NCBI GenBank assembly: GCA_038252025.1
Contig: JBBSAT010000021.1
Location: forward strand, 6,716-46,715
DNA from: Polyangiales bacterium
GTDB lineage: Bacteria; Myxococcota_A; Polyangia; Polyangiales; Sandaracinaceae
DNA: 40,000 nt
Direction: 5' to 3'
Shown here: positions 28,572-40,000 of the stretch, piece after piece
Numbering within the stretch: the stretch's first letter is position 1
Layout of the letters: each line of letters starts with the position of its first letter
Notes under the pieces: generated by a model
What the model was told of the DNA's origin: nothing
What the model saw: only the letters and a program-made list of their open reading frames with translations
Database searches by the model: none
Position numbers and translations under genes: made by a program

Positions 28572-29993
28572 TCAGCAGGATGCGCCGCTGCGCATGCGGC
28601 AGCCGGTGCCGGTGCCCGACGCCGACGAGGACGCGTCTGGCCCCGTGCAGCGTGCTTGCGCCCAGAAGCGAACGCCGTATCCAGGATTCGGGCGGACCAT
28701 GAAGGCATCGGCTCCCATCCACCCAGTCCAGCCGTTGATGGTCGAGCCGGGGATGTACTCCGTTTGGTAGCGATAGCTGATGGCAGCGCCGCCCGTGCAG
28801 CTCGAGGCCGCGTGGCCCTGCGCGTAGTACCAAGTGCCCGCGCTCGGAGGGGCCAGCACCCAGCCGCCCGACGTGGAGCTGCGCACGCTTCCCGGGATCG
28901 TGACGGTGACGCTCGGCGTCCCGGGGGCGGCGATCGACGTGATCGCGTTCGCGACATCCGACCAGGCGCTGATGCGCCCGTCCGCCGCGACGGCGCGAAC
29001 GCGCACGTAGTAGCGACGCCCGGCCCTCGTCGCGGCGAGGATCGCGCTCGTGTCCGTGATCGCCGCGGTGGCGACGGGCGTGGTGAACGCGGCGTCGGTG
29101 GAGATCTCGACCGTGTAGTCCGAGGCTCCGACGGAGGCCGTCCACATGGCCGAGATCCCGCCGGGATCTGCGCTCGCCGTCAGGTCTGTCGGCGCCGCGA
29201 GCGGGCCCGCGTCCGTCGGCGCGGCGTCAGGAGGCCCGGCGTCGGGAGGCCCGGTGTCGGGCGGCCCGGTGTCGGGCGGCCCAGTGTCGGGCGGCCCGCT
29301 GTCTGGCATCCCCGCGTCACGCGGCCCCGAGCACGTCAGGGCGACCGCGCCGCAGCGCTCCCCCGACGCACAGAGCGTGGAGTCCGCGGAGACGAGGCAG
29401 ACGCCGTCGGTGCACTCGACGCTCCCGCACTCGGATAGAGCCCTCGGATCGCTCTCGCACTCCGCGCGCGATGCGCAGCGCGTCTCGGCGCATGCGTCCG
29501 GCGTCTCGGGGGAGCACGTCGGATCGACGCAGAAGCCGTTGTTGCACTCGGTGAGGAGCGGCGCGCCGCTGCGCGGGCAGACGACCCCTTCGCACGATCG
29601 AGAGACGATCGTCGTCATCGAGTAGCGCGTCGTGAGCCTCAGCTCGGTGACGCGCGACGCGAGCACGGAGTCCTCCGAGGTGAGGAGCGAGACTCTCACG
29701 AAGTAGGTTCCTGGACCGATGTCCGGGAGCTCGGCGACGCGGACGCCCGCGAGGTATCCGTCACGCGCTCGGACGGTCGTGACCGTGCCCGCTACGAGGG
29801 CGTCGGTGAACGCAGCACCCGAGACCTCGGTGCGCACGTACGCGAACTGGTCGCTCGCGACGTAGTCCGTCTTCAGGTCGACCGTCAGCCCGCTCGGCGG
29901 CGCGCACGCGAGCGCGAGGCAGGAGGCAAGTGCGAGGAACGAGATCCGGCTGAGCTTCACGTGGACCTCCGCGCACGCATTCTCGTGCGCCAT
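28572..29993 (-). CDS. secreted Cys-rich / fibronectin-III-like lipoprotein
   Basis: The signal/lipobox is SRISFLALASCLALAC; the start is ATG 29993 or GTG 29960. A Cys-rich block (CNNGFCVDPTCSPETPDAC) and a GPPDT repeat linker follow. The FN3-like segment reads APTDLTASADPGGISAMWTASVGASDYTVEIS...YYVRVRAV. Confidence 0.75.
   Translation of the reverse strand: MAHENACAEVHVKLSRISFLALASCLALACAPPSGLTVDLKTDYVASDQFAYVRTEVSGAAFTDALVAGTVTTVRARDGYLAGVRVAELPDIGPGTYFVRVSLLTSEDSVLASRVTELRLTTRYSMTTIVSRSCEGVVCPRSGAPLLTECNNGFCVDPTCSPETPDACAETRCASRAECESDPRALSECGSVECTDGVCLVSADSTLCASGERCGAVALTCSGPRDAGMPDSGPPDTGPPDTGPPDTGPPDAGPPDAAPTDAGPLAAPTDLTASADPGGISAMWTASVGASDYTVEISTDAAFTTPVATAAITDTSAILAATRAGRRYYVRVRAVAADGRISAWSDVANAITSIAAPGTPSVTVTIPGSVRSSTSGGWVLAPPSAGTWYYAQGHAASSCTGGAAISYRYQTEYIPGSTINGWTGWMGADAFMVRPNPGYGVRFWAQARCTGPDASSSASGTGTGCRMRSGASC
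29233..29307 (-). repeat. 15-bp in-frame tandem repeat, 5 copies
   Basis: The plus-strand unit ggcccggtgtcgggc and variants encode (GPPDT)n on the minus strand. Confidence 0.9.
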
Positions 29994-30697
29994 CAGTATC
30001 ACCGCACGGAGCGGTCAATGCTTCTCAAAACCTGACGCCTCCGTTCCGCGGGGAGACAGCGCCGTAGTCCAATGGGGCACATGTGGGTGGACGGGGCTCG
30101 GCACCCTTTCCACGGCTCCATGAAGGTCCAGCGTGAATCGGGGCGAGCCAAGCGCGTCGCCGGCCCGGCCACGATCCCCTCGGGATATCCGCGAACCCAG
30201 GTCGACCTGCGGCAGAACGTCAGCGCCCCCGCGAACGAACACTGGCTGGGCGCGCGCGCTGCTGACGAGCGGCGAGCAGGCGACGATCTCGGTGCGGCGG
30301 AGGGCGGACGATGCGCGCTTCGACTTCACCGTCGTTCCCACGGACGGTAGCTTCCAGCTCGTCACCTACTGAAAGCCGCCCGATCTGGCGAGACGCGGCG
30401 TCGGAGGTCGCCCGAGAGCTCGGCGCCGCGCGCGAAGGCAGCGAGTCGAGCCGCAGCCACGTCGGCAGGCTCGCGTGCCCGAGCGCCGAAGCCGCACGTG
30501 CGCTCGAAGCGCGCCCGAGGGCGACGCGATGCGCCGCCTGGCTTCCGAAGGCCGCCTCGACGCCGCGCTTGACGCTCGCGACGGGCTCCGTGATCCTCGA
30601 TCTTCGTGCTCGATGACCGGCTCACCGACCAGCGACCCCAGGCAACATTGCCTTCATGCGGACAAGGGTCCGAGCACGTGAAGCCGTGTGCTGGGGG

Positions 30698-31033
30698 ATG
30701 GTGACTCGACGCGAGCTTCCGGCGGGCCTCTATGACGCGGCGATCACGGCCGAGCTCGACGGTGCGCTCTCGTCTCTCGCGGAGGAGCTGCGCGAGATCG
30801 AGGCGCTCGATCCCACCGACAGCCCGCGCGCGCTCGCGCGTCTGGTGCACACGCGTCTGTTGCATGCGCTCTCGTCGTTCCCGACGTCGCCTCGCGGCGG
30901 GCAGCCGAGCGATGCGCTCGCGCGTCAGGTGTCGTTGACGAACGAGGTGCTGACGTTGCTCGAGGGCGTGGCGGGCTCGGGCGCATCGCCACACCGCGGC
31001 GGGCTAGCTAGGCATCTCGTGAATCCATCGTGA
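30698..31033 (+). pseudogene. orphan N-terminal fragment resembling the leader region of PLD-nuclease/DEAD-box helicase fusion proteins
   Basis: GGGGGA precedes the ATG at 30698. MVTRRELPAGLYDAAITAELDGAL...DALARQVSLTNEVLTLLEG matches my recollection of that family's N-terminus. The ORF stops after 111 aa, where base composition changes, and overlaps the 3' end of the HNH gene. Confidence 0.35.
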
Positions 31034-31864
31034 CGCTTGGTCTGCGTGCGTCGAGCACTCAGTCACCAAGTTCCATACCACCCACGGCGCCGACGGCCGG
31101 GCCCGCCGGACCCAAAGAACGGAATCGCTAGCCCCGACGCCGCAGCCGACCATGCCGCAGCCACGAGCCTCCTCAAGAGCCCAGAGCGCAGCGCGGCGCT
31201 CAATCGAACTCCGCTTCTTCGGACGAAGATGATTTCCGACCATTACCAGAGCGTCCTCCTGCATGCCCATGCGGTCGCTCTTCAAGATGTTGCATGGCTT
31301 GCACAGGACACGCACGTTCCCAAGATTGCCTCCGATGTAGTAGGGAAGTGTGTGATCCAGATCCGCCTCAAGAACGGGCTCGACGCCCTCCGCAAATCGC
31401 TGCGAGGCCTTGGCGACGCTTGACCGAACGGGCACCCCGCAGGTCGCGCAGCGGAATCCCTGACGGGATAGAATCGCGCTCAGGACTGGTTCCGGGATCG
31501 AGGCGATTCCTTCCTTCCGGGAGAGCGTGTTTGCGACGATCGCAGCGTGAGACTCTACGAGCTTATCCACAAGCAAGCTGACTTCTCGCTCTCCTCCGTT
31601 CTCCAGGTCCAGCGAACCGACACGCGCGAGGCGGGCGCGCACTAGTTCTGCACGCTCCAGGAAGTTGAGTGTCGTGGGCACATCACCGAGAAGCCACATC
31701 ATCAACCGCTCGGCGACCACGGCGGAAAGCGCGTCTCTTAGCGCGTTCGGATTCATTCCGAATGCCGCACATGTCTCAACCATCTCGTCCAACTGCACGG
31801 GACCCGTACGACCGGGTGACCTGCATTGAGCCGCGAGCTCGAGGAGACGGTTTACCAAGCTCAC
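31004..31864 (-). CDS. HNH endonuclease
   Basis: The motif is CATCG...DLDHTLPYYIGGNLGNVRVLCKPCNILKSD (CxxC...DH...N...CxxC). GTG 31864 lies 1 nt after the upstream TGA; the alternative ATG 31906 would overlap it by 41 nt. GC is lower than the surroundings. Confidence 0.8.
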   Translation of the reverse strand: MSLVNRLLELAAQCRSPGRTGPVQLDEMVETCAAFGMNPNALRDALSAVVAERLMMWLLGDVPTTLNFLERAELVRARLARVGSLDLENGGEREVSLLVDKLVESHAAIVANTLSRKEGIASIPEPVLSAILSRQGFRCATCGVPVRSSVAKASQRFAEGVEPVLEADLDHTLPYYIGGNLGNVRVLCKPCNILKSDRMGMQEDALVMVGNHLRPKKRSSIERRAALWALEEARGCGMVGCGVGASDSVLWVRRARPSAPWVVWNLVTECSTHADQASRWIHEMPS

Positions 31865-31865
31865 G

Positions 31866-33623
<1,758 letters not shown>

Positions 33624-33849
33624 TGTTTTCTTCCTGTTTCCTTTGAGTTCAACTTCATGCCGCGGGCTACGGGCTCAAGCCCGTCTGTTCGTATCCACCG
33701 CTGACGGCTGTGCTCCTGGGAACTGACGCGGTTCCGCAAGAGATCTACGAGAAGCACGGTGGCGTGGGCAAGATCGGTGTGAATGGATTAGCTCGGGATG
33801 CCGCGAGAGCATCGCGGACGGGCCGGAACGCTGTCAAGAGGCCCGAGAG

Positions 33850-33896
33850 CCGCTGCGCGGTGTAGTGGCCGGCCGGTTCGGCCGGAAGCGCAGCGG
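33850..33896 (-). terminator. candidate intrinsic terminator / operon-boundary hairpin
   Basis: The outer stem ccgctgcgc (33850-33858) pairs with gcgcagcgg (33888-33896). The inner stem ccggccg (33869-33875) pairs with cggccgg (33879-33885) around a gtt loop. The structure begins 3 nt after the stop at 33899. No U-tract follows. Confidence 0.35.
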
Positions 33897-33898
33897 AA

Positions 33899-35008
33899 CT
33901 AGCTCACTCGCGCAACCCGGCGCTTGAAACGGGCTGCGAGGTACTGCACCACCGCCTCGATGTCCTTCGGCGTGTTCTGCAATTCGTCCCAGCGCGGCTT
34001 GCGACTGCCGAAGTCCCAGTAGCCCTCGGTCCAATGGCAGTCCGGCTTCATCGCCGCCAGGTCGGCAGCGAACTGCCCCTTGCTGGGGATCTTCCTCAGG
34101 CCGTGGCGGTGCGCGATCGAGTCCATCAGGAACCCAAGCCCGGCGATCCCCGCGCCGTGCGTGAGCCGGCTCTTCTTTGGCGGCAGTTTCCACGCCTCAG
34201 GCCACGTGTGGATGACCGCGCGGAAGAAGTCCGACAGTACCCGGTACATCGCCTCCACGTCCGGTAGCCCGCCGTCTCGCACGCGGAACACGTAGAGCAC
34301 CCCATCGCTCAGGCTGTGCTCGATGAGCCGTAGCAGCGAGTTGTCCTTCACGTGCCCGTCAGGATTCGTCGCCGTCTTGATCGACCTGTACAACGGCGAA
34401 CCGTCCCGGTTGTTCAGCATCGTGACGAGCGTCGACGGCAGCTTCCGCCGCTCGAGCTGAAGCGGCAGCAGGGCATCCGTGCTCGGCAACAGCTCGTAGA
34501 TGAGCCCCTTCGGCAACGGTTTCGTCGAGTTTACCAGGATGAACTGCTCCGTCTGCTCCCGGACGCTCCCCGCGATGAACGAGCTCACGCAGATCGGGAA
34601 GGACTTCACGCTAGCCTCCCGAATCGCCGCCACGCGCTGCTGGCCATCCACGATAAAGCCGGGCCGCTCGTGGTCCGCCCGGCTCGGGTCGAGCGGCACG
34701 ACGATCTCGCCTGTCCGCGCGTAGGCGTTCTTCGGACCCGCGCTGTCAGCCTCGAACCGCACCGACTTGTCGAACGCGATGACGACCGCGTTCGGGAGCA
34801 TCGGAGACTCGCTCTCGATGAACGTGCGGATCTCGTCGATGTGCGCGAGTTGCTCCGGGCGCTGATACCCCGTGAGGTCACCCTCTTCACGCTTCACGCG
34901 GGAGACCGTGGCGAACTGGCCGATCAGCTTCCCGTCGACGCTGAACGTGTAGAGGCGACGCTTGCCTTGCTTGATCTCGATCGCGGGCAGTCGGAGCTCA
35001 GTCGTCAT
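33899..35008 (-). CDS. DGQHR-domain protein, DpdB-like (paralog 2)
   Basis: Trimmed to ATG 35008; the alternative GTG 35020 would overlap the dpdA stop as GTGA. Blocks are GDLTGYQRPE, FIVDGQQR, FILVNSTKPLPKGLIYELLP and PEAWKLPPKKSRLTHGAGI. Confidence 0.85.
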   Translation of the reverse strand: MTTELRLPAIEIKQGKRRLYTFSVDGKLIGQFATVSRVKREEGDLTGYQRPEQLAHIDEIRTFIESESPMLPNAVVIAFDKSVRFEADSAGPKNAYARTGEIVVPLDPSRADHERPGFIVDGQQRVAAIREASVKSFPICVSSFIAGSVREQTEQFILVNSTKPLPKGLIYELLPSTDALLPLQLERRKLPSTLVTMLNNRDGSPLYRSIKTATNPDGHVKDNSLLRLIEHSLSDGVLYVFRVRDGGLPDVEAMYRVLSDFFRAVIHTWPEAWKLPPKKSRLTHGAGIAGLGFLMDSIAHRHGLRKIPSKGQFAADLAAMKPDCHWTEGYWDFGSRKPRWDELQNTPKDIEAVVQYLAARFKRRVARVS

Positions 35009-35016
35009 TTTCTTAC

Positions 35017-36297
35017 TCACGCGTGGAGCGCGGGCCTTACCCGCCGGGCCTTGGCGGACGTGGGGGCATCCCCGATCACGTCGCGCTTCAGGCGTCGGAA
35101 AAAGGTCCAGACGTTGTGAAAGCCGCGCCGACGGTTGCGCTCGGCACCGCGGAACAGGATCACGTGGTGCCCGAGCCGACCGCAGACCTCGCACTCGCAG
35201 GCCTTCCACGGGCGCGCTTCGAGCGTCTCGCGATACGCCTCGGCGTAATCTGCGCGGGGATCGTAGAGGTACTCGTACTCGCACACCGCAGCGACGGTGG
35301 CCTTCACGGACCGTCGGCCGAGGTCGAAGTCGCGCATCGCGGCAAGCGCCGTCGTCTCGAGCTTCCGGGCCTTGTCCTGAGGGATCACCCCCGACTGGAC
35401 GCCGCGCATCATCCGCGGGTTGCCCTCGACCTGCGGGATCCGGATCGCGACGTAGGTGCGGTCGAGCGTGTAGAAGTTGTCCTTGTCGTCCTTGAAGGCC
35501 TGGCGCAACGGCGACGTGCTGTCGAAGCTGGTCGCGCCCAGTGCCGCAAACTCCTTCATGCGCTCGATGCGGGTGACCCCGAGGAGATGCAGGCGGGTGT
35601 GTTCCTTTCGCACCGTGGAGATGCCCTCGAGAATCTCGACTATCTCCGGGGTCTTCAGGGGGACCATGCCACCGATGGCGATATACTCGTACCCCATCTT
35701 CTGGAGCTCTTTGACGGCGAGAGCGTACGAGTTGGGGCTCCAGCCTTGAGCAACGCCCATGGGAACGAAGCCCGGCTTCGACGCTCGCGTTCGCTTCATG
35801 AACTCGCCAGCCAGTGACAACGTCATCCCCTGCCGGGTCTTGTACGCCTCTGGGACGTTCCGGCTCGCATCGAGTTCGCGCTCATAGGCGAGGATCACGT
35901 GGTCGACCGAGATCCCGAAGTCGAACCCGCATTCCGCGTAGAACGAAACGACCTCATCGACGGTGTAGGGCGGCTTCTCCTCCTTGACGTAAGTGAAGGC
36001 CCCGCAGTCCCCCATGACCGGGATGTGGCGGCCGTTCGGTCGCTGCGTGCGGAGGAACGCCTGCGACCCTTCCCGGAGGAGCCGTTGCCGCTGTGCAAGC
36101 GTGTACCGACTCCCGGTCGAACCGAAGCCGTCGACAATGCCCTTCGAGACCAGGATACCGTCCGATGCCGGCTCCTTGAAGATCTCGTGGAGGTACAGAT
36201 CGTCGCGCTGCCGTAGTCGCGTGCGCGAGCGCCGCTCGGTGGTGAAGTCGAAGCTCGGATCGACGAGATCCTGCGCGTCGGGGAGGTAGTACTTCAT
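35017..36297 (-). CDS. dpdA: TGT-like 7-deazaguanine DNA transglycosylase (DpdA/TgtA5 type)
   Basis: Trimmed to ATG 36297, which overlaps the upstream stop (ATGA). The N-terminus is MKYYLPDAQDLVDPSFDF. It also has GDCGAF, a TIM-barrel block YIAIGGMVPL and a C-terminal zinc motif CECEVCGRLGHHV. Confidence 0.8.
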   Translation of the reverse strand: MKYYLPDAQDLVDPSFDFTTERRSRTRLRQRDDLYLHEIFKEPASDGILVSKGIVDGFGSTGSRYTLAQRQRLLREGSQAFLRTQRPNGRHIPVMGDCGAFTYVKEEKPPYTVDEVVSFYAECGFDFGISVDHVILAYERELDASRNVPEAYKTRQGMTLSLAGEFMKRTRASKPGFVPMGVAQGWSPNSYALAVKELQKMGYEYIAIGGMVPLKTPEIVEILEGISTVRKEHTRLHLLGVTRIERMKEFAALGATSFDSTSPLRQAFKDDKDNFYTLDRTYVAIRIPQVEGNPRMMRGVQSGVIPQDKARKLETTALAAMRDFDLGRRSVKATVAAVCEYEYLYDPRADYAEAYRETLEARPWKACECEVCGRLGHHVILFRGAERNRRRGFHNVWTFFRRLKRDVIGDAPTSAKARRVRPALHA

Positions 36298-37433
36298 CGC
36301 TCTTCGCGGCGTGCGCCGAGGTAGGCGCGGACGAGATAGTTCGAGAGCAGGTTGATGTGGCTGCCCGTGTTCTCGAGCTCGTTCCACTTCCGTCCGAGCC
36401 CGGACCACTCGCCGCTCGTCCATGCGCACACGGGCTTGATGAGCATCAACTCCGCGCACACCTCGTCGATCGCCTTGGGCGCGTCGGTGTCGATGCTGCC
36501 CATCATGCGGTCCATGAGCTTCCCCATCGCGCGGATGCCGACGCCGTGCATGAGGCGGCTCTGAGTTGGAGGCTTGCCCCACGCCTCGGGGAACACGCGC
36601 TTCACGGCCGTCCAGAATACCAACAGGACACGCTGGACCGTCACGTAGTCCGTCTCACCCGTCGCGACGTCGCGATGAACGAAGAGCGAACCGTTCGAGC
36701 TCAGGTTCTCGGTCAGCGCGTTGATGAGAGACGTGTCCGTCACGACCTGGGTCTTGCGAGTCTCCTTAGACTCCGAGGAGCGCCGAACGATCCCGAAGAA
36801 CGGCGAGTCCGGCAGCGTCGCGAGGACCTCGCAGAGCGCGGCTGGGGCGCGCTTCGCTGCGAGGCTCGCAGGAAGATGAGCGCTCACCTTGGGCAGGAGT
36901 TCCGAGATGAGGCCCTTCGGTAGGGGCTTCGAGGTGTTCACGAGCACGAACTGATCGCGCTGCGTGTTCACGTCATCGGCCACGAACGCCGCGATCGGGA
37001 TCGAGAGGTCCTTCCGCCGGCTACGCGACAGCGCGAGCGCTCGCTGCTGTCCATCGACGATCCAGGCAGGCTTCTGGCCCCCGTTCTTCGGGATCCGGAA
37101 GGTCAGCGTGCCAGCTTCGGCGACCTCGTCGTCGATGCGCGGTCCGCGCGAGCCCTGGAAGATCGTCGACGAATCAATCGAGAGGATGAGCGCGTGGGGA
37201 AACAGCGGCTCGCTCGCAGCGTCGAGGTAGTCGACGATGTTCTTCACATGCCTCCCGACCTCGCCGCGCTGGTAGCCAATGAGGTCACCTTCGATATCGC
37301 GTGAGACACGCGAGATGTCCGCAACCTCGAGGAGCTCCGATGCGCGGAGAGCGAACAGATAGAGAGGATGTTTTGGATCCTGGACGAGCCGGAGAGCTCG
37401 TCGTCGGATGACTCCGCCGCCCCCGACGATCAT
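36294..37433 (-). CDS. DGQHR-domain protein, DpdB-like (paralog 1)
   Basis: Trimmed to ATG 37433, which overlaps the upstream stop (ATGA). Blocks are GDLIGYQRGE, WIVDGQQR, FVLVNTSKPLPKGLISELLP and PEAWGKPPTQSRLMHGVGI. Confidence 0.85.
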   Translation of the reverse strand: MIVGGGGVIRRRALRLVQDPKHPLYLFALRASELLEVADISRVSRDIEGDLIGYQRGEVGRHVKNIVDYLDAASEPLFPHALILSIDSSTIFQGSRGPRIDDEVAEAGTLTFRIPKNGGQKPAWIVDGQQRALALSRSRRKDLSIPIAAFVADDVNTQRDQFVLVNTSKPLPKGLISELLPKVSAHLPASLAAKRAPAALCEVLATLPDSPFFGIVRRSSESKETRKTQVVTDTSLINALTENLSSNGSLFVHRDVATGETDYVTVQRVLLVFWTAVKRVFPEAWGKPPTQSRLMHGVGIRAMGKLMDRMMGSIDTDAPKAIDEVCAELMLIKPVCAWTSGEWSGLGRKWNELENTGSHINLLSNYLVRAYLGARREER

Positions 37434-38344
37434 GCGCTCTCCTGACGGAACAGGCGGCCGAACCGCTTCTGTTCGCAAGCGTGGCCCGCATCTCGAAGGC
37501 GCCGAAGAAACTTCGAGGCCGACGGACGGTCTACAGCGCGGAGTTCTCGCCGGATGAATGCGCGAGCCTCTTCGTCGGTAACGGGCGCGCGAACGAGTGG
37601 CTCGATCAGCGGCGCGCTGGACTCTACCTCGGCCGCGATCGTGCGCGCCGCGTCCACGGACCACTCCCGGGGCGTTAGCGTCCCGGCGACCCGGTGTGCC
37701 AGGCGGGCATTGAGCGAGGTCATCGCCCCGCCGAGATCGGTCCGCATCGGGCCCGTCGAAAGTACGACCTGGTCGGCGAGGCCGTCGCTCGCTCCACGAG
37801 AAGTCACGACCACGACGCGGCGCGAGTTCTTCGCGACCGAGACGGCAACCTCGAGGTCTTCGTGCGCGGCGTCGACGTAGGCCGGCGATCCAATGAAGAG
37901 CAGTGACGCGCCGTTGGCGGCGAGCGAGGCGATCGACCGTTGCTTCGAGCAGACAGCCCGCCACCAGGCGCGGCGATCCAACGAAACGCCTGCTCCGCTA
38001 GCCGCAGAACTCACCGAATCCGCATTTCCTACCGCGAAGGTCGCCGAGTATGCGGACACCAGCCGCCCAGCGGGAATCAGGCCATAGCCCGCGGAGGCGA
38101 CCCAGAGATGCGCCTCCTTCCAGCCCATCGCGAGCGCCGCGGCGGGCACGTCGCGACACATCGTCCAGTGGCTCCCGAGGTAGAGCTCACCTGCGGGGGT
38201 CGTCGGCTTGGCGTCGCGAAGCGCAGCGACCCACCGCTTCGCGCGGTCTGGGCCACGCCTGTGTGCACGCAGGCGTAGGCTCGCGGTCGGTGCGGCGCGC
38301 TTGAGATCGGCGCACGCCGCGACGATGTTCAGAACGGAGCCCAC
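37430..38344 (-). CDS. uncharacterised protein (DUF6884-like pattern by eye)
   Basis: Trimmed to GTG 38344, 2 nt after the folE2 stop. The pattern IVAACADLK...PAGELYLGSHW...LWVASAGYGLIPAGRLVSAYSATF recalls the ACSxxK...PAxxLY...LSAxYGL family. It has no QueC SGGxDS motif. Confidence 0.55.
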   Translation of the reverse strand: MGSVLNIVAACADLKRAAPTASLRLRAHRRGPDRAKRWVAALRDAKPTTPAGELYLGSHWTMCRDVPAAALAMGWKEAHLWVASAGYGLIPAGRLVSAYSATFAVGNADSVSSAASGAGVSLDRRAWWRAVCSKQRSIASLAANGASLLFIGSPAYVDAAHEDLEVAVSVAKNSRRVVVVTSRGASDGLADQVVLSTGPMRTDLGGAMTSLNARLAHRVAGTLTPREWSVDAARTIAAEVESSAPLIEPLVRAPVTDEEARAFIRRELRAVDRPSASKFLRRLRDAGHACEQKRFGRLFRQESA

Positions 38345-38346
38345 AT

Positions 38347-39141
38347 TCAGCTCGGTCGGGTCCAGGTGCTGGACGCGAACGCCGCATGGTTGTGGATGCT
38401 CTCCTCGTTGCGAGCGTGCACCTTGAACCAGCTGATTCGCGCGTCTTCGCGTAGCCGGACCGCCACGTTGCGGACCATGTCCTCGACGAACACCGGGTTG
38501 TCGTAAGCCTGCATCGTGACGTGGCGCTCGTCCGGCCTCTTCAGAAGCGGATAAACGGGACATGACGCCGAGGCCTCTGCGACTTCCACGAGCTCTTCGA
38601 TCCAGACCCACGACTCTGGGCCGCTCGCGCTCGCGCATCGAACATCCATCGTCAGGTACCCGCGCTGATTGTGCGCGCCGTAGTCGCTGATCTCTTTCGA
38701 GCACGGGCACAGGCTCGTCACGGGAACACGCACCGAGAGGACGAAGTCGTGCGTCGTTCCGTCGGTGGATCCGACGAAACGGCAGTCGTAGTCCATCAGA
38801 CCCCGCGCCTTGCTGACCGGGGCCTCGCGCTCGAGAAAGTAGGGAAACGCGACGTCGATGCTCGCACTCGGCGCGTCGAGCTTCTCCTTCATCGCCGCAA
38901 GAATGCGTGGAAGGGTCCGCATCGTGATCTCGCCGCGGTGGGCCTCGATGATCTCGACGAACCGGCTCATGTGCGTGCCCTTCGCGGTGGAGGGGAGGGC
39001 AACCGACATGGAGATCGTTGCGATCGTGTGCTGCTTCTCGCGGGCTCGATCCAGGATGACGATCGGGCAACGAAGGTCGGCGATCCCGGCGGCGTCCAAC
39101 TCGACGCCACGCGAGTCCTCGCGCGACTGGACGTCGCGCAT
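38347..39141 (-). CDS. folE2: GTP cyclohydrolase IB (FolE2/MptA family)
   Basis: Trimmed to ATG 39141. Motifs are KGTHMSRF, SLCPCSKEISDYGAHNQR and EESIHNH. Confidence 0.9.
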   Translation of the reverse strand: MRDVQSREDSRGVELDAAGIADLRCPIVILDRAREKQHTIATISMSVALPSTAKGTHMSRFVEIIEAHRGEITMRTLPRILAAMKEKLDAPSASIDVAFPYFLEREAPVSKARGLMDYDCRFVGSTDGTTHDFVLSVRVPVTSLCPCSKEISDYGAHNQRGYLTMDVRCASASGPESWVWIEELVEVAEASASCPVYPLLKRPDERHVTMQAYDNPVFVEDMVRNVAVRLREDARISWFKVHARNEESIHNHAAFASSTWTRPS

Positions 39142-39509
39142 CACTGCGCGCCCTCCGGACCGGTGTAGACGCAGCCCGAAGTGCACGTCTCGCGGATCAC
39201 GATGCGCGAGAGCTGCGGGAGGGTCGGTCGAAGCTGCTTCCAGATCCAGCGCGCGAGGTTCTCGCTGGTCGGGTTCGCGAGCCCTTCGATCTCGTTGAGG
39301 TAGTTGTGGTCGAGGATCTTGTGGAGCGGCTGGAACAGCTCCTTGATGTCCGCGAAATCCATCACCCAGCCGTCACGCTCGTGCACCTCGCCGCGGACGT
39401 GGATCTCGCAGCGAAACGAATGGCCATGGAGGCGGCCGCACTTGTGACCCGGCGCGACGTGCGGCAGCAGGTGCGCGGACTCGAACGTGAACTCCTTGAA
39501 AATCTCCAT
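39141..39509 (-). CDS. queD: 6-carboxy-5,6,7,8-tetrahydropterin synthase
   Basis: Trimmed to ATG 39509, with a GGAG Shine-Dalgarno upstream. Motifs are FTFESAH, CGRLHGHSF and LDHNYLNE. Confidence 0.9.
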   Translation of the reverse strand: MEIFKEFTFESAHLLPHVAPGHKCGRLHGHSFRCEIHVRGEVHERDGWVMDFADIKELFQPLHKILDHNYLNEIEGLANPTSENLARWIWKQLRPTLPQLSRIVIRETCTSGCVYTGPEGAQ

Positions 39510-39529
39510 GGCATGCGCTCCGAAAAAAC

Positions 39530-40000
39530 TCAGGAAATGCCCAGGACCTTGTGAGTCTGGACGCTCAATCGCCACCGCGGATGCGCGAGGCAGTAGTCGA
39601 TCGCCAGCCGCGTGTTCTGCTTACGATCCGGCCCGTCGAGCGGCTGGAGAAGGAACGCGGCGAAGTCGAGGGACTCGAACTGCGCGGGATCCACGTCGGC
39701 TTGCGGGACCACGAGTTTGAGCTCGTGCCCGCGTCGCACGGCTAGACGCGAGCCCGCTTTTGGACTGACGCAGATCCAATCAATTTCTGCCGGGACCTCG
39801 ATCGTGCCGTTCGTTTCGACCGCGATCTCGAAGCCGACGGCGTGGAGAGCGGAGATGAGAGGCGCATCGAGTTGGAGCAACGGCTCACCGCCGGTGCACA
39901 CGACGAGGGGTCGCTCCCACGCGCCGGTCCACGTCTCCCGAACGTGAGCCGCGAGGTTGGCCGCGGTCTTGAAGCGGCCCCCGCCGGCTCCGTCGACGCC
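39530..40000 (-). CDS. queE: 7-carboxy-7-deazaguanine synthase (radical SAM), 5'-truncated by the window edge
   Basis: The frame is open to coordinate 40000. Motifs are CTGGEPLLQ, AVETNGT and QPLDGP...RLSVQTHK. Confidence 0.85.
   Translation of the reverse strand, partial: GVDGAGGGRFKTAANLAAHVRETWTGAWERPLVVCTGGEPLLQLDAPLISALHAVGFEIAVETNGTIEVPAEIDWICVSPKAGSRLAVRRGHELKLVVPQADVDPAQFESLDFAAFLLQPLDGPDRKQNTRLAIDYCLAHPRWRLSVQTHKVLGIS

Follow-up and report, generated by a model that had tools for sequence, protein, structure and literature searches.

The 40,000-nt stretch of DNA from a Polyangiales bacterium that was analysed here (the window) carries, at positions 31004-40000, what is probably most of a Dpd island gained by horizontal transfer, with two DpdB proteins. 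One of these, DpdB1, would act as a second loader of the DNA-guanine transglycosylase DpdA. A gene pair for a third DGQHR protein (DGQ3) and an HNH endonuclease would form a restriction arm that replaces dpdD-K. Positions are those of the window, and the genes named lie on the minus strand.

The modification half of the locus is ordinary. By homology to characterised proteins and to the reconstituted Salmonella system (PMC10164549), FolE2, QueD and QueE, together with an expected QueC, would make preQ0. DpdA would exchange guanine in double-stranded DNA for preQ0, with ATP hydrolysis by the ParB-fold DpdB, and DpdC would then hydrolyse the nitrile to yield dADG. The more interesting part of the locus is the arrangement of three paralogues, DpdB1, DpdB2 and DGQ3, with the HNH nuclease, which defines a compact Dpd variant.

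Layout and composition of the island

Seven tightly packed open reading frames (ORFs) were assigned between 33899 and 40000 from the ORF list and profile hidden Markov models (HMMs). They are queE (partial), queD, folE2, dpdC, dpdB1, dpdA and dpdB2 (Table 1). An earlier note on this DNA had described seven consecutive minus-strand genes here, and all of the ORFs were found as it had located and measured them. Its description of the gene junctions was likewise borne out by direct reading of the sequence. The genes queD and folE2 join in TGATG (39139-39143), and folE2 is separated from dpdC by 2 nt (38345-38346, TGA-AT-GTG, with the GTG start at 38344). ATGA overlaps link dpdC to dpdB1 (37430-37433) and dpdB1 to dpdA (36294-36297). 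A gap of 8 nt lies between dpdA and the ATG of dpdB2 at 35008, with an alternative GTG start at 35020 that would give a GTGA overlap. Public gene calls for identical proteins, on a 5.8-kb contig and on a 46.7-kb NCBI contig, had the same lengths of 379, 426 and 369 amino acids (aa) for DpdB1, DpdA and DpdB2.

The island is larger than first described. The earlier note had bounded it at 33899, and two more minus-strand genes, at 31866-33623 and 31004-31864, belong to it. Guanine and cytosine (GC) content, about 0.70 over the first 30 kb, dropped to 0.56-0.66 across 31000-40000. The large ORFs in 1-31000 encode ordinary regulators and enzymes, including a sigma-54 activator, a Ser/Thr kinase, a hybrid histidine kinase and a 2-oxoacid dehydrogenase E2. 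The drop in GC, together with the ordinary genes elsewhere in the window, makes the block look like an acquired island with its left edge near 31000. Promoter, terminator and Rfam scans of 30500-40000 gave nothing above background, and a preQ1 riboswitch was not found there. The spacer between dpdB2 and DGQ3 (33624-33898) held no consensus promoter, terminator or Rfam match.

DpdD, DpdK, DpdJ, DpdH and DpdG, identified by PADLOC in related loci, were used as tblastn queries and gave nothing better than E 0.1 in the window. An SNF2 (DpdE-like) query had no window match at E ≤ 0.01, nor had a PLD-helicase query; DpdF and DpdI were not separately searched. The ten largest other ORFs of the window were unrelated to dpdD-K. 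At least one of DpdD, DpdK, DpdJ, DpdH and DpdG was present within 10 kb in about half of 80 related loci. The lack of canonical dpdD-K genes reported earlier thus holds within the window for DpdD, DpdE, DpdG, DpdH, DpdJ and DpdK. The finding is confined to the window, which ends in queE.

preQ0 genes, DpdC and DpdA

The queE gene is cut by the window end, and queC is expected just past 40000, as about 39 related loci have queC immediately upstream of queE. The 304-aa ORF after folE2, which the earlier note had left nameless, is DpdC. It matched the PADLOC profile PDLC02817 over its full length (220 bits, E 9e-66, residues 4-301 on profile positions 3-292 of 299). No NCBIfam model was matched by this protein, and its match to Pfam DUF6884 was weak. 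The gene holds the same position in 70 or more related loci. Conversion of dPreQ0 to dADG is the function reported for DpdC (PMC10164549).

DpdA was assigned to the DNA-modifying family. On the models for tRNA enzymes it reached 25 bits (TgtA), 23 bits (tgt_general) and 17 bits (Tgt), with cutoffs of 350, 48 and 307, respectively. The match to the DNA-guanine transglycosylase of Salmonella Montevideo (PDB 7UI4) had an E value of 1e-121 over residues 1-404. In that enzyme, Asp95 (general acid/base), Asp256 (nucleophile), Asp130, Phe99 and Phe265 matter according to mutagenesis or modelling (PMC10164549). The corresponding residues D97, D259, D132, F101 and F268 of the window protein were all invariant in an alignment of 26 sequences of the clade. 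The base-contacting His181 of the Salmonella enzyme (GVAHGW), unlike these residues, is replaced by Gln184 (GVAQGW, window 35746-35748), which was invariant in 26 of 26 clade members. Judged from the alignment, this exchange may reflect a difference in base recognition. The best match to DpdA among GTDB representatives was 64% identical.

A tRNA queuosine or archaeosine pathway with a tRNA-guanine transglycosylase would explain the que genes, which are common to tRNA queuosine synthesis. It would also suit the NCBI product name of the family, still 'tRNA-guanine transglycosylase DpdA', and a marginal Pfam TGT match of 27 bits. However, the scores on the three tRNA models were far under their cutoffs while the DpdA model gave 551 bits, the 7UI4 match spans the full length and the transglycosylase is flanked by DpdB and DpdC. 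The HMM scores exclude a tRNA function, and the tRNA pathway has next to no probability as an explanation of the operon. The statement of the earlier note that the operon modifies DNA rather than tRNA agrees with the HMM scores, the structural match and the retained catalytic residues. The HMM check it had proposed placed DpdA and both DGQHR proteins above the NCBIfam cutoffs.

Two families of DpdB

The DGQHR proteins on either side of dpdA are both of the DpdB class and share 36% identity over 356 aa (E 9e-68), in line with the two diverged paralogues described before. The motifs YQR54 and DGQQR127 are intact in DpdB1, and DpdB2 has DGQQR at residue 121. As origins of the second gene, recent tandem duplication and a pseudogene copy were considered; the identity of 36% and the intact motifs in both copies exclude them.

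To place the two proteins, 80 DpdA-anchored loci with 52-64% DpdA identity were collected from species-representative genomes, and the window proteins were mapped onto them. Gene order was scorable in 75 loci and unscorable in five. The order dpdC-dpdB1-dpdA-dpdB2 was present in 52 of the 75 and dpdC-dpdA-dpdB2 in the other 23. A DpdB2-type gene followed dpdA in all 80. The arrangement described by the earlier note is therefore the majority layout of the DpdA clade and not peculiar to this locus. Its hosts were found in Myxococcota, Acidobacteriota, Actinomycetota, Planctomycetota, Gemmatimonadota, Chloroflexota, Cyanobacteriota and other phyla.

Upstream copies were always closest to DpdB1 of the window and downstream copies to DpdB2. 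Both formed clean orthologous groups, with identities of 45-99% within and 32-44% between groups. Each set scored 540-663 bits on its own HMM and 307-389 bits on the other (307-381 bits for the DpdB1 set on the DpdB2 HMM). An Enterobacter cloacae plasmid carries a gene in the dpdC position, dpdA and dpdB, followed by convergent dpdD-K-J-H. Its sole DpdB reached 492 bits on the DpdB2 HMM versus 320 bits on the DpdB1 HMM. The cross-scores and the DpdB2-type protein of Enterobacter identify DpdB2 as the orthologue of the studied enterobacterial DpdB and DpdB1 as an added, ancient paralogue. The NCBI model gives DpdB1 and the canonical DpdB one name.

The two-DpdB layout was found together with canonical DpdD, DpdK, DpdJ, DpdG or DpdH (L002, L003, L009, L043, L044, L054 and others) as well as without them. 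Since the two often coexist, the double DpdB is unconnected to the loss of restriction genes. Extra dpdB copies were already counted in a survey (n=801; PMC12235509), so that the duplication as such is catalogued. In the literature consulted, no description of DpdB1 as a distinct, position-fixed paralogue family was found. The comparison gives these counted copies a concrete definition.

Further DpdB-like genes that are not clearly DpdB1, DpdB2 or DGQ3 lie convergent to dpdB2 in two loci. One (L031, 2756-3835) had 352 and 327 bits on the DpdB1 and DpdB2 HMMs, and the other (L024, 13859-15013) had about 90 bits.

Role of DpdB1

Both DpdB1 and DpdB2 retain the ParB-type NTPase signature (GYQR, PN, VDGQQR, PLPxGL, ELLP, SRLMHG, CxWTxGxW). 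A conservation of 90% or more was common to the two groups in 67 columns, among them GYQR, VDGQQR, PLPxGL, ELLP and SRLMHG. Mean pairwise distances were 0.62 for DpdB1, 0.60 for DpdB2 and 0.61 for DpdA. These similar values show that DpdB1 is under constraint comparable to the other two proteins. In a neighbour-joining tree of DpdA, loci with one DpdB were nested at six places or more among loci with two, pointing to repeated loss of DpdB1. A metagenomic locus (L088, 2045-5060) has the order dpdC-dpdB1-dpdA and no room for dpdB2. Its sole DpdB is of the DpdB1 type (570 versus 326 bits), and its DpdA is more divergent, with 39% identity. Distance matrices of DpdB1, DpdB2 and DpdA were correlated with r of 0.69-0.79. 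The partial correlations of each DpdB with DpdA were 0.43 and 0.57 and that of DpdB1 with DpdB2 was 0.26, a weak and only suggestive difference. From these patterns, DpdB1 would most simply be a second competent ATPase serving DpdA, helpful but dispensable. It may serve as an auxiliary or alternative loader and perhaps broaden or alter the use of target sites.

The first suggestion of the earlier note was a heteromeric loader, in which DpdB1 and DpdB2 would form an obligate heterodimeric clamp that loads DpdA. The DpdB of S. Montevideo is a homodimer, for which dimerisation around DNA through the ParB-like N-domains has been proposed (PMC10164549). Two paralogues could pair in the same way, and heterodimers are thus physically plausible. 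Moreover, the two genes flank dpdA with translational coupling, all NTPase motifs are kept in both proteins, and DpdB1 never occurred without DpdB2 in the 80 DpdA-anchored loci. An obligate heteromer is nevertheless unlikely. DpdB1 was lost at no fewer than six independent places on the DpdA tree while DpdB2 was retained. DpdB2-type proteins are the sole DpdB in the studied enterobacterial type, and the biochemically reconstituted system runs on such a protein alone. Conversely, DpdB1 is the sole DpdB in the metagenomic locus. Each DpdB also tracks DpdA closer than DpdB1 tracks DpdB2 in the partial correlations, which are weak evidence.

A role of DpdB1 outside the modification chemistry was the second suggestion, as a DndB-like regulator or as a modification sensor that communicates with restriction genes. 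DndB belongs to the same Pfam family and is a transcriptional regulator of dnd genes (PMC5699537, PMC12707154). Evolutionary dispensability would suit such a protein, and six positions are fixed differently in DpdB1 and DpdB2, including two extra arginines in DpdB1. On the other hand, DpdB1 scores above the DpdB equivalog cutoff, is the sole DpdB of the metagenomic locus and occurs with neighbours of the DpdD-K type and of the DGQ3 type, so it is not tied to one restriction arm. It retains every NTPase motif and evolves as slowly as DpdB2 and DpdA, which makes an inactive sensor unlikely. The regulator or sensor role is accordingly rated slightly below the obligate clamp in likelihood. A sensing function fits better to DGQ3 with its HNH partner than to DpdB1, for which the role as a second loader is preferred.

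DGQ3 and the HNH endonuclease

DGQ3 stayed under the DpdB and DGQHR cutoffs on all curated models and had no Pfam match. The profile of its family aligned with the DpdB2 profile in hhalign with 98.9% probability (E 1.4e-17, 287 columns), identifying DGQ3 as a third, highly diverged DpdB-like protein. The AF2 model had a pLDDT of 84 and a pTM of 0.80, with residues 147-205 disordered. This segment (window 33009-33185) lies between the N-terminal strands and the DGQHR motif. Among its 59 residues are 30 D/E, including a run of eight Asp, and one K/R. Its length varies across the family. As judged from the model, the acidic insert might be a DNA-mimicking autoinhibitory segment.

The downstream gene encodes an HNH protein. 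Nine homologues share the invariant motifs Q..RC..CG, L[DE]H..P...G[ND] and LC..CN..K, as well as a C-terminal C..C..C..H cluster. These motifs include the HNH catalytic signature CxxC...(D/E)H...N...CxxCN..K. The window protein reached 18.7 bits on PF14279 (HNH_5), under the threshold of 27.5, and a 55%-identical homologue (P0244) carries PF14279. The homologue search with the HNH protein gave at least three sequences, and membership of the HNH family was set by tblastn in the DGQ3 loci.

SspE is a DGQQR NTPase by which a nuclease is controlled in response to a DNA modification, and it is described as the nearest relative of DpdB in function (PMC10164549). By analogy, we infer that the island has its restriction or effector arm in DGQ3 and the HNH protein. 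The ParB-fold NTPase DGQ3 would read the modification state of the DNA and license the HNH nuclease to cut DNA without 7-deazaguanine. The pair would thereby take over the restriction role of the dpdD-K genes absent from the window.

Association of DGQ3-HNH with dpd cassettes

DGQ3 belongs to a small family. An indexed search gave 148 hits, and an exhaustive profile search of 1.84 billion representatives gave 124 at E ≤ 1e-30. Where flanks sufficed, its members almost always stood beside two-DpdB dpd cassettes, in distant phyla. DGQ3 was found beside dpdB2 or a dpd cassette in Mycolicibacterium fortuitum, in Cyanobium, in three myxobacterial or Gemmatimonadales genomes (L030, L036, L071), in L087, L088, L090, L094-96, L098, L099, L104 and L113 and on the P0140 contig. 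The pairing thus occurred in Myxococcota, Actinomycetota, Cyanobacteriota, Gemmatimonadota and many metagenome contigs, in convergent as well as co-directional orientation. The metagenome scan covered mostly contigs of 2-6 kb; adjacent dpdB2 or dpdA was visible in many of these, which yield no clean frequency estimate. A dozen metagenome contigs had a DGQ3 family member next to a dpd cassette. On one JGI contig, DGQ3 and the dpd cassette were located on a putative conjugative element. In L113, queC-queE-queD-folE2-dpdC-dpdB1-dpdA-dpdB2-DGQ3-partner run in one direction, with DGQ3 overlapping dpdB2 by 4 nt. Apparent exceptions to the adjacency sit at contig ends.

The HNH family gene always came after a DGQ3 homologue. 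DGQ3 was partnered by an HNH-family protein, by a member of a second family of some 360 aa, or by both in series. Members of the second family have 356-376 aa and no Pfam or PADLOC match; they stand instead of or after HNH and are absent from the window. A different pair of HNH and DndB-like genes occupied the same neighbourhood in eight further dpd loci. The combination of HNH with an extra DGQHR protein therefore recurs in at least two versions. Full-length DGQ3 was anticorrelated with DpdD, DpdG, DpdH, DpdJ and DpdK, which were present in 1 of 6 loci with full-length DGQ3 compared with 31 of 46 without it (complete flanks; Fisher p=0.026).

The pair may instead be an independent defence or selfish element that landed by the dpd cassette, leaving the island as a modification-only ('orphan') Dpd system. 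Defence genes generally cluster in islands. GC at third codon positions (GC3) was 0.69-0.70 in DGQ3 and HNH, lower than the 0.78-0.89 of the dpd and que genes (the flanking chromosome has about 0.70 GC overall), and a gap of 275 nt separates the two gene groups. A Corallococcus homologue of DGQ3 has no dpd genes in reach, and islands without a restriction operon have been reported, including in the myxobacterial genus Archangium (GATOR-GC). Yet the family, tiny as it is, stands beside dpd cassettes in four phyla and many metagenome contigs in both orientations. DGQ3 is homologous to DpdB, its gene and dpdB2 share 4 nt in L113, and a second, unrelated HNH and DndB-like pair is present in the same neighbourhood of other dpd loci. 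An independent element is therefore considered improbable, and the assignment of DGQ3-HNH to the Dpd system as its restriction arm is retained. The island nonetheless seems to be made up of two modules that differ in their history.

Several observations count against the overall reading of the locus. The window ends within queE, and the source contig extends beyond it by as much as about 6.7 kb. The lower GC3 and the 275-nt gap from dpdB2 may mark DGQ3-HNH as a separately acquired and separately transcribed module. The Corallococcus homologue (L084) lacks dpd genes in reach, on a contig that ends 3.3 kb away. M. fortuitum has the pair together with an SNF2 (DpdE-like) helicase and a PLD-helicase, so that DGQ3-HNH is not strictly alternative to helicase-based restriction. 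A Foldseek search with DGQ3 gave no significant solved structure (best E 0.33); BrxU and DndI were among the top matches, neither being significant. The analogy to SspE and GmrSD is one of domain logic, and the role given to DpdB1 is read solely from conservation patterns.

A large PLD-DEAD/ResIII-helicase-DUF3427 protein adjoins the DGQ3-dpd block in two distant phyla and is not present in the window. A 406-aa DGQ3-family protein (P0215) has a precomputed PF01242 (QueD/PTPS) domain. It may represent a gene fusion, or two genes joined in gene calling, that would connect the family to preQ0 genes.

Comparison with known systems

The enterobacterial Dpd system, as in S. Montevideo, consists of dpdCAB and dpdD-K, the latter including the YprA-like helicase DpdJ and the PLD nuclease DpdK. 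The window locus resembles it in the full-length homology of DpdA with its essential Asp and Phe residues, in the dpdCAB order with DpdC upstream and a DpdB2-type protein downstream of dpdA, in the preQ0 genes and in the low-GC island. It differs in that dpdB1 is inserted between dpdC and dpdA. Furthermore, DpdD, DpdE, DpdG, DpdH, DpdJ and DpdK were not found in the window, and DGQ3 and HNH stand in the usual place of dpdD-K.

The phosphorothioate-sensing NTPase-nuclease SspE and the type IV restriction enzymes GmrSD and BrxU share the logic of a ParB-fold DGQ(Q/H)R NTPase and an HNH-type nuclease beside a DNA-modification cassette. In contrast to SspE and GmrSD-type enzymes, which have a DUF262 NTPase domain fused to a DUF1524 His-Me nuclease domain, NTPase and nuclease are separate genes in the window, and the mark read would be 7-deazaguanine instead of phosphorothioate or glucosyl-hmC. 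Neither a DUF262 or DUF1524 HMM match (Pfam, NCBIfam, PADLOC) nor the EHxxP nicking motif of SspE was found for DGQ3 and HNH.

All three DGQHR proteins belong to the superfamily of DndB. DpdB1 and DpdB2 matched Pfam DndB with 60-76 bits, and DGQ3 has the literal DGQHR. Unlike DndB, DpdB1 and DpdB2 are DpdB equivalogs, ATPases serving the transglycosylase, and they scored 47-58 bits on TIGR04172 against a cutoff of 450. No dndA or dndC-E was present among the ORFs of the window.

In phage Dpd systems, a large fraction of G is modified, and DpdB and DpdC are generally lacking. The window shares with the systems of phages 9g, CAjan and iggy a DpdA-family transglycosylase and preQ0 genes that put 7-deazaguanines into DNA (PMC6884629, PMC10484667). 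It differs from them as a chromosomal locus with two DpdBs and DpdC among ordinary bacterial genes. The dpd plasmid of Microcoleus PCC 7113 was examined as a precedent and rejected, as its long DpdA fusion and single DndB-like gene on the other strand form a different layout.

Islands of Myxococcota with reduced restriction content, and HNH genes near some islands without a restriction operon, have been reported, with no interpretation offered (PMC12235509). A 2025 review notes of the restriction linked to ADG that it "has not been further explored" (PMC12707154). It is tentatively proposed, as a possibility that falls short of probable, that DGQ3-HNH is a minimal two-gene arm reading dADG or dPreQ0 in place of the eight-gene DpdD-K, and that DpdB1 and DpdB2 divide the labour of marking. 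The two could, for example, serve different target sites, or replication-coupled and maintenance modification. If true, the locus would represent a compact, undescribed Dpd subtype in which three paralogous ParB-fold NTPases write and read one base modification. A dpd cassette with one DGQHR protein and one HNH nuclease would then be a far simpler experimental handle on the reading of 7-deazaguanine than eight large genes. Neither the definition of DpdB1 nor DGQ3-HNH alters the basic understanding of the Dpd system.

Other features

The genes of the island and the partner genes in other loci are listed in Table 1.

Table 1. Coordinates of the island features in the window and of DGQ3-associated or similar genes in other loci.
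Feature	Position	Strand	Evidence or remark
queE (7-carboxy-7-deazaguanine synthase), 3' part only, cut by window end	39530-40000	-	TIGR04508 queE_Cx14CxxC 233 bits, profile positions 55-207 of 208
queD (6-carboxytetrahydropterin synthase), 122 aa	39141-39509	-	TIGR03367 110 bits (cutoff 89); PF01242 127 bits
folE2 (GTP cyclohydrolase IB), 264 aa	38347-39141	-	NF010200 281 bits (cutoff 215); PF02649 310 bits
dpdC, 304 aa, GTG start, predicted dPreQ0-to-dADG hydrolase	37430-38344	-	PADLOC PDLC02817
dpdB1, extra DpdB paralogue (DGQHR/ParB-fold NTPase), 379 aa, between dpdC and dpdA	36294-37433	-	NF041060 393 bits (cutoff 300); PDLC02811 434 bits
dpdA (DNA-guanine transglycosylase), 426 aa	35017-36297	-	NF041059 551 bits (cutoff 200); PADLOC DpdA 558 bits
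dpdB2, canonical-type DpdB ATPase, 369 aa	33899-35008	-	NF041060 449 bits (cutoff 300); PDLC02811 458 bits
dpdB2/DGQ3 intergenic spacer, 275 nt	33624-33898	-	Possible internal promoter region; AGGAA-rich ribosome-binding region before ATG 33623
DGQ3, third DGQHR protein, 585 aa, very divergent DpdB-like ParB-fold	31866-33623	-	FQR45 and DGQHR267 conserved
HNH endonuclease partner, 286 aa, GTG start 1 nt after DGQ3 stop	31004-31864	-	HNH motif; public call also 286 aa
Second partner family, members in other loci	L113 11756-12862; L084 11702-12778; L085 12393-13523; L030 12768-13571; L071 12464-13531; L090 4906-5982		
330-aa HNH, then ~373-aa DndB-like DGQHR protein	L045 12231-14342; similar in L055, L057, L067, L069, L075, L077		HNH: PF01844/PF14279 above threshold
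PLD-DEAD/ResIII-helicase-DUF3427 protein	L082 6748-9846 (M. fortuitum); L085 20333-21689 (Cyanobium); L072 4172-6004		

Just outside the island, an ORF at 28572-30002 on the minus strand encodes a predicted 476-aa protein unrelated to the features above, in which a fibronectin-III-like domain occurs together with a short proline-rich repeat, PDSGPPDTGPPDTGPPDTGPPDAGPPDA.

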